Source: an uncultured Candidatus Bathyarchaeia archaeon
GTDB taxonomy: Archaea > Thermoproteota > Bathyarchaeia > 40CM-2-53-6 > RBG-13-38-9
Direction of reading: 5' to 3'
Length of the DNA stretch: 64,000 nucleotides
Assembly: GCA_964480955.1 (NCBI GenBank)
Contig: CAYZRW010000007.1
Location: 827-64,826, forward strand
Numbering within the stretch: position 1 is the first letter of the stretch; each line of letters begins with the position of its first letter. Shown here piece by piece: positions 26,024 through 33,627 of the stretch. The notes beneath the pieces were generated by a model that was given only the letters and a program-made list of their open reading frames with translations, had not been told where the DNA came from and did not search any database. The translations under genes were made by a program, and so were the position numbers.

Positions 26024-28326
26024 TCACCCTTGATTAAAATAATCTATTGAGGCTTGGTCCTGAGGCTCCAACATTCTCTTTATGCGGTGAATATCGTAGC
26101 CCAGTGGCGAGAGTATGTTGGCCGCGGCGTTCAGAAGCATCGCCTCATACTTTGCAAGATCGTATCTCAAGTCATTATTCACAAGCTCTCTTGCAAGAAC
26201 CCGCCTCTCAGGGATAGGGTTGTCTCCATCAACAATCAAGAAGGCCACGGACTCCCCAGAATTTATTTCCAGGCCCTCGTCGGTAAGCTGTTTTGCAGCT
26301 ATGGATTGAAGGCTATTCTGCACATACTCTGACGGGTCTCTAGACAGACGTTTCTGAACGAGCAGATCAGAAAAATCTACCCTGCGGCCCCTCAATACCT
26401 CAAGATAATCTCCAAGTATCTGGATTGCCCCTGGAATCAGCCTGAGAAGTTCCTGCGAATTCTTGGCCTCTGCAAGATGGGATATGATGCTGGACTGACA
26501 TCTCCTTATGAAGGCGGGCACGTCACCTCTTCGAACCTCGATCCCCCTACACTTGACCCTTCCATCAGCGAAGGCACCGTAATACTTGTTGAGGGCGGGA
26601 AGCCCAGGCCTAACCTTCGACGGTAAGAAAACGACCCATCTATATCTTCCTTCGAACGACACAGGTAAGCCTAGCTCAGACTGAATCCTATCCGCCAGCC
26701 CTAGATAGTCAGCCTCCTCAGCACCTCTCTTCCCAACCCATACAGAGTCGACAATTGCGTGAACCAGACTGAAGCCTTCAGACTCAACAATCTGAACCGT
26801 CTTCTGGAGCACTTCCCTCGCAAACGCGCATGTGGCGATGTGAGCGTCAATCTTTCCGTATCTAGCGTTCTTGAAGCCGAGGTACCCGACTGCGCATGCC
26901 CAAGCCTCTGCTTAGGGCATTATGCGCACACAAGTATCCATTTGAGCGCCGCCTGCCTCTTACGGTAGGTCTCCCTCAACGGTGGGTCGCTGGCTTCCTT
27001 CATCATCTGTTTATACCTTAACCTCTTCTCAAGAAGCTCCTCAAGCGATATCGGGACTATACCTCTCCTCTTCTCACAGATTTGATACCCTAACTCTGGA
27101 ACCCTATTTTGCGATTCTGGACAACATCTGCACCTGACAGTCTCACCGCTCAGATTAAACTTACACATCAAGGTTGGGTAGAGTGAGGAGAAGTCCAGCT
27201 CCCCAACATCATCATAGACACCTGCGACCGGCGTATAGTATAACCCACCCCTATCAGCGATAATGAGTTCCTCAGCGGTCTTCAACTCTTCTGGAAGGGC
27301 CTTAAACCATGGGGCCAGAATATCCCTCCTGAAGGCATGGTAGAGTTGGATGGAGGTCATGCTCGTTCCTATCGTTGAGTCGACACACCTCTGGATAGGA
27401 ATACGGCAAGTCCTAGAGACCTCTATGATGCCTTCGAGTCCACAATCGTCATAGAGGAAGGCGTGCTCTCGGTCTACATGTATTCTCCCATAAAGGCGAA
27501 CTGGGGCAGGGCGGTATTGAACCCTGCCATAACTGAAGTACACCCTTCCCCGCTGGCTAAAAATTCTAAGGGGAGACCTCTCACGTCCCAGAACCATCTG
27601 GCTGGAGACCCCCAGTCTCTGGGCGCGCTTCGCCAAGTACGGGAATAAGAAGGAGTTTCCATTGTGGGTGTAAACCACATCCGGATCAATCTCGCGGAAG
27701 AGCCTCACAAGTCCCAGAAGATTCTCCTCCTCATAAGAAGAGTCTAGCACAAGAACTTCTTCCTGATTTCCAACTGTGATCTCCTTCAACGGGTCTTCGA
27801 GGCTTGGAATAGAGCATCCAGAACCTATTGAGAGATCTAGATAGACACAGGTCAGCTCTGGAACCCCATAATCTATGCTGTCGCTACTGTCAAGAACCTG
27901 CCACTCGACCAAACCATAATTCAGGTTGGCCTCAACTTGAGCTAGAGGAAATATATCTCTCTCATAGAGGTAGATTTGTTCTGCAGGAATATCCACATTA
28001 AAGAGACGAAACTTTCTTGACGACAGAGCTATTCGCTTTGCAAGTTTAACTGCTTTCCCGGTCGTGGATACTGGAATCTTGAGAACCTGCGACTTCTCAT
28101 AGTCCTCTATATTCAGATACTTCTCTTCAAAAGATAAGTCCTCGATGTTGAGTTTCTTTGCAAGCTCAACTAAGTCTGAATTTTCTCCCGAAGCATAGAA
28201 GGACGGTCTCCAATCGTCCACCAGTCTCTGGGCTTCTCCGCTTCTCAATTTTACCCAGACAACCATTCCTCCATCTTTTTGGTAGAGGTCAAGGATCCAG
28301 CCTTGAATTCTTGAGTTGCTCAACAA
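26024..28326 (-). CDS. polB2: Family B DNA polymerase, PolB2 group, one gene with a 32-nt intron (exons 28326-26922 and 26889-26024; 756 aa)
   Basis: ELDFSSLYP (motif A), spliced KWILVCAFGYLGFKNARYG (motif B), HAIVDS (PolB2-type motif C), degenerate exonuclease domain, C-terminal PIP-like QASIDYF. Confidence 0.88.
26890..26921 (-). other. Putative BHB-type (EndA-spliced) mRNA intron in polB2, 32 nt
   Basis: mRNA GCGC-AT^A-ATGCCCTAAGC-AGAG-GCTTGGGCAT-GCGC-AG^T: 4-bp central helix, two 3-nt bulges, 10-bp inner stem; removal gives TGC GCA TTC GGG TAC (CAFGY). Confidence 0.85.
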
Positions 28327-28582
28327 TATTCTGAATCCCCTCCATAGTGCTCCTTAGCTCCTTCAACTCCTTTGTGTGAGCAAAGAGGGCTGAGAGGAAC
28401 ATGCCTTCAACCACTGAAGGAAAGGCTGCTGCGCCAGCTTCGGAGGCGTAGCTTCTGACCGTGTTTACAAGGTCTTCAAAGAATGACTTCTCTTCTCTCC
28501 TTAACATTCTGGCGAATTTCTTCCAGGTATGCGAGATCTCCTGCTCGATCGCCGCCCTATAGGAGGGTATTGTTCTTCCCAT
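28289..28582 (-). CDS. Small PolB2-associated helical protein (arCOG07300-like)
   Basis: MGRTIPSYR...WKKFARMLR.E.K..FEDL; located between the radA-like gene and polB2. Confidence 0.8.
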   Translation of the reverse strand: MGRTIPSYRAAIEQEISHTWKKFARMLRREEKSFFEDLVNTVRSYASEAGAAAFPSVVEGMFLSALFAHTKELKELRSTMEGIQNIVEQLKNSRLDP

Positions 28583-28583
28583 G

Positions 28584-29363
28584 CTAAGCAGCTTCTAAGA
28601 AACTCTCAAGCCCCATGTTTACAGCCACTGGAATGTTCACTTGGAGGGTGGGGGTTGATGGGTGTCTTTCAAGAATTATCTTTTCAGCTGAACCTTGTGT
28701 CACAATATTTGCTGTTATGCTGCATCTTCTTTTTAGAAGAGCCTCAAGCTTCTTCATTCTCTGCGTAGCTTTTCCAGAGCGGGTAATCAGAGCTATAGCA
28801 TCCTTCGACTTGATAATCGTTGTTAAACCTATCAGGGCCCTGCAGAACTGTTCCCTACCAATATCCTCTTCCAAGTCTTGGTCGCAATATAGTGAAGGGA
28901 AATCTGAGATTACAACGAGTTTGCTACCTGTATCCTCAAGTACTTCCTTCAGTTTACATTCTATGAAGTTTGTCATCTGGAAGCATGTGAAGGCTCTAGA
29001 GAGTAATATATTTCGTAAAATTAAAGCTCTGTCCAATTTATTTCTTCGAGAAAAATTTGTAATGATTGATGGATCGAAACCGCATCCACCGTCAAGAAAG
29101 ATCACCTTTGAGTTCATTCCACCCCCGCTGATTGGGAGTTGCGCCCTCACGCAGAGCATTTCAGCAAGGTTCAAACACCTCTCAGAACCGTAGAGATAAA
29201 TAATCTGCCTAGGTTTGAATCCTTGAAATAATCTGTCGAGGGCTCCGTCTCCAAAATAAAGTCTTGAGGAAAAACTATTCAAAGCAACGCGTGTGAAACC
29301 GGAAGGTAGACTACTTTCGTGCGGACTCCCACCCATTTCTGATTCCTCTTTAACCGTAATCAT
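28584..29363 (-). CDS. Inactivated RadA/RecA-like protein of the PolB2 cassette
   Basis: LDRLFQG, CVRAQLP..GGG...VIFLDGG..FDP, LSRAFTCFQ; Walker A GxGKT absent; start may be ATG 29336. Confidence 0.8.
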   Translation of the reverse strand: MITVKEESEMGGSPHESSLPSGFTRVALNSFSSRLYFGDGALDRLFQGFKPRQIIYLYGSERCLNLAEMLCVRAQLPISGGGMNSKVIFLDGGCGFDPSIITNFSRRNKLDRALILRNILLSRAFTCFQMTNFIECKLKEVLEDTGSKLVVISDFPSLYCDQDLEEDIGREQFCRALIGLTTIIKSKDAIALITRSGKATQRMKKLEALLKRRCSITANIVTQGSAEKIILERHPSTPTLQVNIPVAVNMGLESFLEAA

Positions 29364-32490: not shown

Positions 32491-32502
32491 GGAGAAGCGA
32501 CT

Positions 32503-32964
32503 ATGGATTACCTGGAGAGAGCTTTCAGAGCGATGATAAAGGAAGAAGTCAGAAGACTCAACCAGCACCTGCCGAGAACAAGGAAGACCCTAAAACATCT
32601 CCTTCAGGAACCTACACCGTCTGTGGAGACTCATGACGGAGGAAACATAGTAATTAAGAGGGAGGAATTGCAGAAACTGGCAAAAATCTTGCCGCCTAAC
32701 CTGCATGAGAAGCTCCAACTCCCAGTGATCGTTCAGAGGAGATTCGACCTTGGAAAATCTGTTTACACCGTATCCGGAAGCAAACTTGAGGAGTTCACTA
32801 TAAAGTACTTGCTTGGGCTCGCGGAGAACGACTTCGGCAATTATGAGGCTGAGGAAGTGTTTTACATCTACAAGCCGTATCTAATGGAGTTGATCCGAAC
32901 TATTCATTCCTTGATAGTGATAGGGTTCGGGACTCCTGAAGGTCTTACGTTAGACTCGCAGTAG
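32503..32964 (+). CDS. DUF61/UPF0216 family protein
   Basis: LNQHLP..RKTLK.LL.E..P......G; context next to fibrillarin. Confidence 0.7.
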   Translation: MDYLERAFRAMIKEEVRRLNQHLPRTRKTLKHLLQEPTPSVETHDGGNIVIKREELQKLAKILPPNLHEKLQLPVIVQRRFDLGKSVYTVSGSKLEEFTIKYLLGLAENDFGNYEAEEVFYIYKPYLMELIRTIHSLIVIGFGTPEGLTLDSQ

Positions 32965-33627
32965 CTTGCACTCTAGGTTTCTAAAGGTTCTCCACGTTCT
33001 CCTAACGATGGGCAGATCGCACCTGTTCCTGAGAATCCACTCCTTCACAAACCTGATAGTCTTTGGGTCTGACGGGTAGCCTGATCCGAAGTCGCCGTAG
33101 GTTTCTTGCAGACTCTCAATTATCTCGTCCCTCCTCACCTTGGCTAGAATTGAGGCTGCAGACACCACAGGATACTTCCTGTCGGCGTGATGCTCCGATA
33201 CAATTCTCAGAGGAGCCTCAAGTTGCTGGAGTATTTGACACGCGAATCTTTCCGGGCTTCTGTCAGGGGCGTCGACATAAGCTGTCTCAGGTCTCAGCTT
33301 GTTAAGGATCTTTGCGATGTACCTTGCCTCTAACAGGTTCAGTCTCATCATTGGTCTACCCCTCAGGACTATGGAGTCGATCTCTTGAGGCTCAATCTCC
33401 AACAGGACATGTTCCTGAGTCAGGCTGAGTATCTTTGGGGCCAGTCGACTTCTTGACTTTCTAGTCAGAAGTTTTGAATCACGAACGCCAAGCTGGTTCA
33501 GGTAAGGAATCCTATCTTCTCTCAGAATCAAACCTGCTATTACGAGTGGACCTATGAGTGGGCCTCTTGGGAAGCCGTCTCAGCTCGGCTTTCTCCCAGC
33601 CTCATCCACTCCAGCAACCTGAACCAT
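32950..33627 (-). CDS. rnhB: Ribonuclease HII with a 27-nt intron (exons 33627-33593 and 33565-32950; 216 aa)
   Basis: Spliced N-terminus MVQVAGVDEAGRGPLIGPLVIAG; also GVRDSK, YVDA, ADRKYPVVSAASILAKV.RD, GSGYPSDP. Confidence 0.93.
33566..33592 (-). other. Putative BHB-type (EndA-spliced) mRNA intron in rnhB, 27 nt, with in-frame TGA
   Basis: mRNA TGGG-AG^A-AAGCCG-AGCTGAGA-CGGCTT-CCCA-AG^A-GGC: helix TGGG/CCCA, two AGA bulges, 6-bp inner stem; removal gives GGG AGA GGC CCA (GRGP). Confidence 0.87.

Follow-up and report, generated by a model that had tools for sequence, protein, structure and literature searches.

Short tRNA-type introns probably interrupt the polB, rnhB, nadE and infB messengers of an uncultured Bathyarchaeia archaeon

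Two essential genes in a stretch of DNA from an uncultured Candidatus Bathyarchaeia archaeon, polB (family-B DNA polymerase) and rnhB (RNase HII), are each split by a short hairpin insert, and the question raised by this locus is whether such genes are broken or whether they are read only after an RNA splicing step. The stretch (the window, 64,000 nucleotides (nt) of contig CAYZRW010000007.1 in assembly GCA_964480955.1) corresponds to G000:C7:827-64826, where G000 is the source genome, with 1.82 Mb in 54 contigs and an estimated completeness of 95.5%. We propose that these two inserts, together with others that we have found in nadE (NAD synthetase) and infB (the initiation factor aIF5B) of the same genome, are bulge-helix-bulge (BHB) pre-mRNA introns of the archaeal tRNA type, excised by the splicing endonuclease EndA and sealed by RtcB, and we assign a probability of about 0.85 to this reading. 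The inserts are arranged in the same way as an anticodon-arm intron of an archaeal pre-tRNA. According to this proposal, each gene would be transcribed with its insert, which would fold together with the four upstream exon bases into a 4-bp helix and two 3-nt bulges with an intron-internal hairpin behind them. A two-subunit EndA would cut after the second base of each bulge, RtcB would join the exons and the intron would probably be released as a small circle, so that the full enzyme would be encoded by the spliced mRNA only, the unspliced one stopping or shifting frame at once. We infer cleavage, ligation and the enzymes responsible from the DNA sequence, which suggests that the polB, rnhB, nadE and infB genes are probably not broken and need RNA splicing to be read.

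In the case of polB, the minus-strand open reading frame (ORF) 26920..28326 codes for 468 amino acids ending in ...ALKWILVCA, followed by a TAA, and the protein continues in a different frame (...GYLGFKNARYGKIDAH...) that is open from 26887 to 26024, where the listed ORF is 26024..26812 (coordinates of all the features are given in Table 1). Written as RNA, with the cuts as slashes and the bulges in brackets, the site reads GCGC[AU/A]AUGCCCuAAGC-agag-GCUUGGGCAU GCGC[AG/U]. The BHB spans 26889-26927, with a central helix formed by 26924-26927 and 26892-26895, bulges at 26921-26923 and 26889-26891, and a weak exon-exon helix by the second bulge. The unspliced frame meets a UAA across the 5' site, and cutting in silico after the second base of each bulge and joining the ends gives GCA-UUC-GGG (A F G). 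The unaltered halves match NCBIfam NF004418 (type B DNA polymerase) at profile positions 9-435 and 438-716 of 717, the second one from its residue 1, and Pfam finds DNA_pol_B_exo1 and positions 44-159 of the 453 of DNA_pol_B in exon 1 and positions 282-452 in exon 2. The constrained BHB fold has an energy of -20.9 kcal/mol. When a 51-nt stretch was folded without constraints, none of 200 shuffles was as good (z -3.8), and the fold obtained was approximately the BHB structure with its register shifted by one pair. This interrupted gene is the sole DNA_pol_B match in G000.

The rnhB gene is located ∼6.6 kb from polB on the same (minus) strand. It starts with an ATG at 33627-33625 and reads MVQVAGVDEAGR (...VDEAGR) up to the insert, past which the frame runs GPLIGPLVIAG... 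down to 32950, and therefore the insert splits DEAGR/G. The RNA is UGGG[AG/A]AAGCCG-agcugaga-CGGCUU CCCA[AG/A], in which the exon-exon helix by the second bulge is absent, and the constrained BHB fold has -13.0 kcal/mol. The insert's fourth codon in the unspliced frame is a UGA, and the same cutting rule gives GGG-AGA-GGC (G R G). The match to TIGR00729 (RNase HII) begins at profile position 11, which is the first residue past the insert. The first-pass annotation of this DNA had described inserts of 27-32 nt within 26890-33592, and these two limits match insert boundaries to the base, the lengths being 32 nt in polB and 27 nt in rnhB. The other features that it had ascribed to them, namely the 4-bp central helix, the two 3-nt bulges, the strong inner stem, the weak or missing exon-exon helix, the stop codon in the unspliced frame and the location within a conserved catalytic motif, were seen in both inserts as well. 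Its claim that cutting after the second bulge nucleotide restores both proteins exactly is likewise borne out in silico, by contiguous family profiles and by the intron-less polB of relatives described below.

The same annotation had proposed a search for other conserved genes interrupted by inserts folding as BHBs, and nadE and infB proved to be such genes, with same-site inserts in relatives. We scanned G000 for a strict BHB motif (a 4-bp helix with 3-nt bulges, 4 bp or more in the inner stem and an intron of 14-120 nt), which gave 92,301 matches, 2,767 of them compact, and the four cases were chosen by energy rank, restoration of the family profile and conservation. Ranked by fold energy per base, polB was first and nadE second. 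The nadE site reads UCGG[AU/A]GGAUGCGUU-caucuga-AACGCAUCC CCGA[AG/A], and without the insert the protein becomes ...SEMMLG-Y-FTKFGDG, with Pfam NAD_synthase positions 4-136 and 138-242 of 242 distributed across the halves. The infB insert was obtained with a scan variant for short first exons, which also found rnhB again. Its RNA is GGCC[AU/A]CGUCG...CGACG GGCU[AG/G] and it splits VVVLGH/VDHGKT, within the GHVDHGKT P-loop, and the match to NCBIfam NF003078 begins at profile position 20, the first residue past the insert. All four inserts have one geometry, in which the 5' exon forms a 4-bp helix with the 3' end of the intron, the 3-nt bulges are on opposite strands and the inner stem is directly adjacent. 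The outer exon-exon helix is clear in infB only (8 pairs, 95.3% paired) and weak or absent in polB, rnhB and nadE. As the motif was strict, four mRNA introns are a lower bound.

Two other searches of the genome added no further case. A structure-free heuristic, based on adjacent dominant frames without a nearby start codon, gave 94 junctions, and among the 75 that were read it found again polB and nadE only; an earlier version of it had returned 1,322 rows and was too noisy. A mirror-image scan, in which the central helix is formed by the 5' end of the intron and the 3' exon, produced 17,539 motifs; the frame filter left 183, and none of the top 25 was convincing. The best of them, a 32-nt hairpin at window 40041-40072 (minus strand; -21 kcal/mol for 36 nt), lies within the intact thiolase-like ORF 38862..40097 (minus strand) and is not an intron because the thiolase-like frame reads through it.

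We have compared these sites with those of relatives, all of them Bathyarchaeia metagenome-assembled genomes (MAGs). A 32-nt insert is present at the same polB site in G001 and G015, and it is missing to the base in four genomes (G004, G007, G012 and G014), which read contiguously ...VCA-F-GY or ...VTA-F-GY; the polB of G008 was not alignable upstream of the site. In rnhB, the insert was found in 10 of the 10 relatives with an alignable site. Ten further loci from public genomes contained it in six cases (three of which repeat relatives already counted) and lacked it in four (L030, L032, L035 and L036), these being two Bathyarchaeia, one Promethearchaeota and one Desulfurococcales with a contiguous D(D/E)AGRG. 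Altogether there are 12 distinct versions of the rnhB insert, of 19-29 nt. A degenerate pattern for intron-bearing rnhB, strict enough for its counts to be minima, matched 20 of the 401 class genomes sampled, against 1 of 401 for a reversed control. By family, the matches were in 8 of 15 genomes (f1), 4 of 4 (f7), 5 of 7 (f9) and 1 of 1 (f4), plus one family of another order, and there were none in the four largest families (0 of 59, 104, 71 and 25 genomes). The insert is also found beyond the order in G062, of the same class. For nadE, the match extends over the site in 8 relatives, and every one of them has an insert, of 30-34 nt. For infB, an insert of 35-45 nt is present in 17 of the 24 aligned genomes, and the other 7 have a contiguous VLGHVDHG. 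Two genomes (G021 and G029) have an intron-less infB yet an intron-bearing rnhB, and therefore the introns have different histories. Among 80 metagenome loci of infB, the intron is present in 4, which are the closest ones (77-80% identity), lacking in 71 more distant ones and not assigned in 5; no spliced infB copy was found among these 80. The junctions of the intron-less polB, infB and rnhB relatives match the sequence predicted by cutting after the second bulge nucleotide.

The comparison also showed that the helices are conserved as structures. In infB (16 sequences), 94.4% of the helix cells are paired, against 28-44% in slid controls; the corresponding values are 94.8% against 34-58% for rnhB (12 sequences) and 95.7% against 27-53% for nadE (9 sequences), and in each of the three genes the covariation score was reached by 0 of 500 shuffles. 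The central helix of these genes is 97-100% paired across relatives, and the inner helix covaries in all four genes. Changes on both sides of a pair were found at four pairs in infB (one of them, for instance, being C-G and U-A in 7 sequences each and U-G in 2) and at six pairs in rnhB, and in the polB of G001 and G015 two stem pairs have changed from C-G to U-A and one central pair to G-U. These controls overstate significance, because the structures were derived from the same sequences and the genomes are kin. Even so, drift does not give effects of this size or so many independent double changes. Furthermore, the insert lengths across relatives fall in all three classes modulo 3 and each version shifts the frame or holds a stop codon, which argues that the inserts are not translated.

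In infB, the exons themselves may be adapted to the fold. The outer helix is formed by GUGGUC(C)UA with UAGACCAC (8 pairs), of which a mean of 7.5 are formed in sequences with the intron and 5.6 in those without it. The Leu codon is YUA in 16 of 16 sequences with the intron, while CUA, the sole YUA form seen without it, occurs in 9 of 67, and the Val codon is GUA in 14 of 16 and 22 of 67, respectively. These two synonymous codons supply two pairs by the bulge and are nearly fixed only when the intron is present. As the sequences are not independent, we take this as a supporting hint that the exons are adapted to the fold; the figures also suggest that part of the helix was already available in the sequence coding for the P-loop.

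The enzymes that would be required are encoded in G000. The EndA alpha subunit (183 amino acids) contains the two Pfam domains, and its catalytic positions are occupied by Tyr, His and Lys. Its best matches in the PDB are chains 3p1z_B, 2cv8_A and 2zyz_B (E 1e-37 to 1e-39), together with 3ajv_B, and its loop ...YGKPMGIPKPKPDQRFDSPL... aligns with the matching loop of those chains. We take these four chains to be crenarchaeal catalytic subunits, and the shared loop to be the 'Crenarchaea-specific loop'. A second EndA-like subunit (180 amino acids) also has both domains, without the catalytic Tyr and His in an alignment to 5x89_A. As predicted from these two genes, the EndA of G000 is of the two-subunit (alpha-beta) architecture of the crenarchaeal kind, in line with the broad-specificity form that had been expected from the inserts. 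The two subunit genes are located at G000:C1:105-656 (minus strand) and G000:C16:20663-21205 (plus strand), and RtcB is encoded as well, on G000:C26 (583 bits). Two papers tie the two-subunit architecture to relaxed motifs and to cbf5 splicing (PMC2738675; PMC5829648). The tRNA genes point in the same direction. ARAGORN without introns called only 7 tRNA genes in the whole of G000, none of them within the window, and when one strict BHB was removed in silico we obtained 11 junction-spanning calls, with hairpin introns of 19-32 nt at non-canonical sites (for example after nucleotide 7-9, 20, 28, 68, 73 or 82) and of the same shape as the mRNA inserts. Several of these calls are still 90-98 nt, which is too long, and so they probably hold further introns; almost every tRNA gene of G000 is interrupted, and most of them probably carry several introns. 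The intron option of ARAGORN returned 26 calls for the genome, many of them implausible, and was not relied on.

These data bear on the possibility that the inserts are removed from the RNA by another pathway, in which EndA and RtcB would be replaced by other cutting and joining enzymes or by a fold that cleaves itself. The participation of these two enzymes is a prediction, and three of the four motifs have no canonical outer helix, as might be expected in such a case. However, both the geometry and the deduced cut sites are as in EndA substrates, the EndA subunits of G000 are of the type that has been reported to tolerate relaxed motifs (PMC5829648; PMC2738675), the tRNA introns of this genome have the shape of the mRNA inserts, and an Rfam search of window 25000-35000 gave no match of any kind, ribozymes included, at E up to 1. 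We therefore consider another pathway improbable and EndA with RtcB the better explanation.

Translational bypassing, in which the ribosome would hop over the hairpin and no RNA would be spliced, has precedents in phage T4 gene 60 and in the yeast mitochondrial 'byps'. The inserts do form short hairpins, in which the stop is placed at the take-off point or close to it, and in G000 the rnhB insert is flanked on both sides by AGA and the polB insert by UGCGCA, which resemble matched take-off and landing sites. Across relatives, however, the 3' bulge is free to vary in its first two bases (AG, AC, AA, UG or AU) and it is the third one that preserves the codon, as AGR (Arg) in rnhB and as the G of GUN (Val) in infB. 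The rnhB triplet can be AGA, ACA, AAG, AAA, AUG, UGA or AUA, and the landing triplet is thus not conserved; its last position is invariably occupied by a purine, and hence Arg is what a BHB cut yields in every case. The infB triplet also varies (AAG, AUG, AGG or ACG) while the predicted junction codon is kept. Moreover, the conserved and covarying parts are the BHB helices, including the 4-bp helix, which is needless for bypassing. All this makes bypassing very unlikely as compared with excision of the inserts as BHB introns.

A third explanation is that the genes are pseudogenes, or carry the scars of a small mobile hairpin element, and yield no protein. Formally, each gene is indeed broken, and an annotation pipeline would report it as two ORFs or as a pseudogene. 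Nevertheless, the decay that the first-pass annotation would have taken as evidence against splicing is not seen, as the flanking frames are intact throughout and agree with the full-length profiles of their families. Across genera and families, and for rnhB beyond the order (G062), each insert has kept its site and shows compensatory changes, and the genes concerned include aIF5B and the sole family-B polymerase detected in G000. We find this explanation hardly credible. Finally, an assembly or sequencing artefact, which the origin of the window in a MAG might bring to mind, has a negligible chance, since contigs from runs of three other studies (X8, X9 and X10) cross both the polB and the rnhB inserts without gaps, with single-nucleotide polymorphisms elsewhere and one in the polB intron loop (26908 C>T, plus strand), and homologous inserts are present in dozens of independent MAGs and metagenome contigs. 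In a low-depth contig of run X8, 14 nt take the place of 46 at window 26889-26936, and its minus strand encodes KWILVVSFGY. This contig represents an intron-less polB allele from a related organism in the same sample, with the junction where predicted.

Several observations weigh against the proposal that the inserts are BHB introns and limit its strength. The folding of rnhB is ordinary (z -1.7, 11 of 200 shuffles as good) and its unconstrained minimum free energy structure is a different fold, not a BHB; the rnhB structure rests on conservation instead. Since their exon-exon helix is weak or absent, the polB, rnhB and nadE motifs are relaxed, of the helix-bulge-helix (HBh') kind, and not canonical BHBs. 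In G006 (L012, G006:C379), the rnhB central helix is mismatched (UUGG with CCCA) and the spliced product would be DEAWRG, with W in place of G, which may be a base error in the MAG or a tolerated variant. The BHB motif by itself has no predictive power: genome-wide, its removal joined dominant frames in 16 cases, against 10-15 in frame-shifted controls, and a lax test with two open frames gave 359 removals against 344-377 at shifted cut sites, without excess in either test. The motif therefore cannot count introns, and the scan serves as a candidate finder only. In addition, every genome compared is a MAG of an uncultured organism, and the splicing is a deduction, no RNA run having been found among the sequencing runs matched to this population, the DNA runs of which include freshwater and sediment samples. 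As regards the earlier suggestion that EndA and RtcB splice many mRNAs in this lineage, it is strengthened by the two further genes, the covariation, the enzymes and the intron-rich tRNAs, while 'many' exceeds the four genes that can be named.

It is tempting to go further and to imagine a Bathyarchaeia clade with an obligatory mRNA-splicing programme, in which the expression of core genes (those of polB, aIF5B, RNase HII and NAD synthetase, and probably others beyond the reach of the strict scan) would depend on EndA and RtcB, and in which introns would have spread from intron-laden tRNA genes to coding sites that already offered half a BHB. The P-loop region of infB, with 5.6 of 8 exon-exon pairs even in intron-less relatives, fits the last part of this idea. 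We regard this extended version as doubtful, and put it forward tentatively. If it were true, replication, translation initiation and NAD supply would be coupled to the RNA-processing capacity of the cell.

Some other features of this DNA deserve a mention. Between polB and rnhB there are two uninterrupted ORFs on the plus strand, 30621..31820 (399 amino acids) and 31792..32490 (232 amino acids), which by their translations are presumably Nop5/Nop56-like and fibrillarin-like, respectively. Elsewhere in G000, seven candidate introns judged by their junction peptides only were not supported (C8:22510-22536, C23:12032-12061, C2:120516-120537, C4:92313-92344, C18:9908-9936, C1:80856-80886 and C10:41055-41089). 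The last of these (minus strand) is a strong BHB-like hairpin (-17 kcal/mol) directly upstream of an open frame starting ...GLDVHKDS, which we take to resemble the N-terminus of an IS110-type transposase. A DNA-ligase-like frame contains an in-frame TGA at G000:C54:408-410 (...ERREKLS-stop-VCDDIYLAKRIV...), with no intron-like length difference, and an error, a pseudogene or recoding might each account for it.

Table 1. Exons and putative micro-introns of the four genes, in positions of the window or, where indicated, of other contigs of G000.
Feature	Position	Strand	Evidence
polB exon 1 (N-terminal part, family-B DNA polymerase)	26922..28326	-	ORF 26920..28326; start codon as predicted (ORF list)
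polB putative micro-intron, 32 nt	26890..26921	-	Sequence; constrained BHB fold; same-site inserts and precise absences in relatives; other-study contigs
polB exon 2 (C-terminal part, including stop codon)	26024..26889	-	Open frame from 26887
rnhB exon 1 (MVQVAGVDEAG plus the first two bases of the Arg codon)	33593..33627	-	Sequence; junction translation; TIGR00729 positions 1-10 absent from exon 2
rnhB putative micro-intron, 27 nt (BHB spans 33565-33598)	33566..33592	-	Sequence; constrained fold; homologous inserts; other-study contigs
rnhB exon 2 (including stop codon)	32950..33565	-	ORF 32950..33531 plus open frame upstream; Pfam RNase_HII 10-198/199 from residue 1
nadE putative micro-intron, 32 nt	G000:C3:77691-77722	+	Strict BHB scan; Pfam NAD_synthase on both halves
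infB/aIF5B putative micro-intron, 38 nt	G000:C5:45599-45636	-	Scan variant for short first exons (which also re-found rnhB)

The splicing of mRNAs by the tRNA-intron machinery has been treated as a curiosity in Archaea. The scale observed here, with four unrelated core genes and introns conserved across genera and families, suggests that EndA acts routinely on mRNAs in at least one widespread uncultured lineage. There is also a practical consequence for annotation, as the polB, rnhB, nadE and infB genes of these MAGs would be called split genes or pseudogenes, leading to wrong inferences on metabolism and replication. Furthermore, the four differing distributions provide a natural series of gains and losses for studying how protein-dependent introns invade coding sequences, and the inserts (19-45 nt) are compact natural substrates for studying how a two-subunit EndA recognizes a relaxed motif without a tRNA body.

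In the literature that could be searched, from which subscription journals are mostly absent, we found no BHB introns in polB, rnhB, nadE or infB and no mRNA introns in Bathyarchaeia, and the only mRNA substrates of an archaeal splicing endonuclease found there were crenarchaeal cbf5 and, in Haloferax, the leader of HVO_1309. According to Yokobori 2009 (PMC2738675), splicing had been confirmed for cbf5 alone and putative introns had been predicted in other protein genes (its references 39 and 50), and an overlap of our cases with those predictions is possible. In the portions available of two later papers, one from 2020 names cbf5 alone besides its own case in a 5' untranslated region (PMC7714728) and one from 2025 on EndA/RtcB-type enzymes cites only cbf5 work (PMC12397907); IRE1/RtcB is named in PMC13149111. 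As far as the searched literature goes, the genes, the lineage, the number of introns per genome and their position in the most conserved motifs are new; the mechanism is of a known kind.

One of the closest known systems is the cbf5 intron. In the cbf5 of G000 itself (C37:13210-13506) there is no stop or interruption in the matched part (TruB_N profile positions 16-149). The cbf5 pre-mRNA intron of Crenarchaeota was reportedly described in Watanabe 2002 and Yoshinari 2006. Like our inserts, and according to PMC2738675, it is a short BHB-type intron in a protein gene, with an often relaxed motif and a hetero-oligomeric alpha-beta endonuclease, it has been gained and lost among relatives, and the genes that carry it have been mistaken for frameshifts. 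Our cases differ in that they affect polB, rnhB, nadE and infB in Bathyarchaeia, with at least four per genome and each in the most conserved motif of its protein; moreover, the splicing of cbf5 was shown experimentally, whereas that of our four genes is predicted. The 5' untranslated region of Haloferax volcanii HVO_1309 (Schwarz 2020, PMC7714728) offers a second mRNA that is cut by the splicing endonuclease at a BHB, and removal of its intron seems relevant for expression. In that case, unlike ours, the intron is located in an untranslated leader and the enzyme is the product of a single endA gene (HVO_2952), whereas G000 has two EndA-like genes. With the non-canonical BHB introns of tRNAs our inserts share geometry and size (19-32 nt in G000) and presumably the enzymes, but their host is an mRNA, which provides no tRNA body for recognition, and the exon bases of the motif are constrained by coding. 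Finally, the HAC1/XBP1 splicing carried out by IRE1 and RtcB in eukaryotes is independent of the spliceosome and regulated by stress. It resembles the process proposed here in that a protein endonuclease acting on stem-loops removes a short mRNA intron, with ligation afterwards, and in that this step decides which protein is made, but it differs in its unrelated endonuclease, in its motif and in the stress regulation known for HAC1/XBP1.

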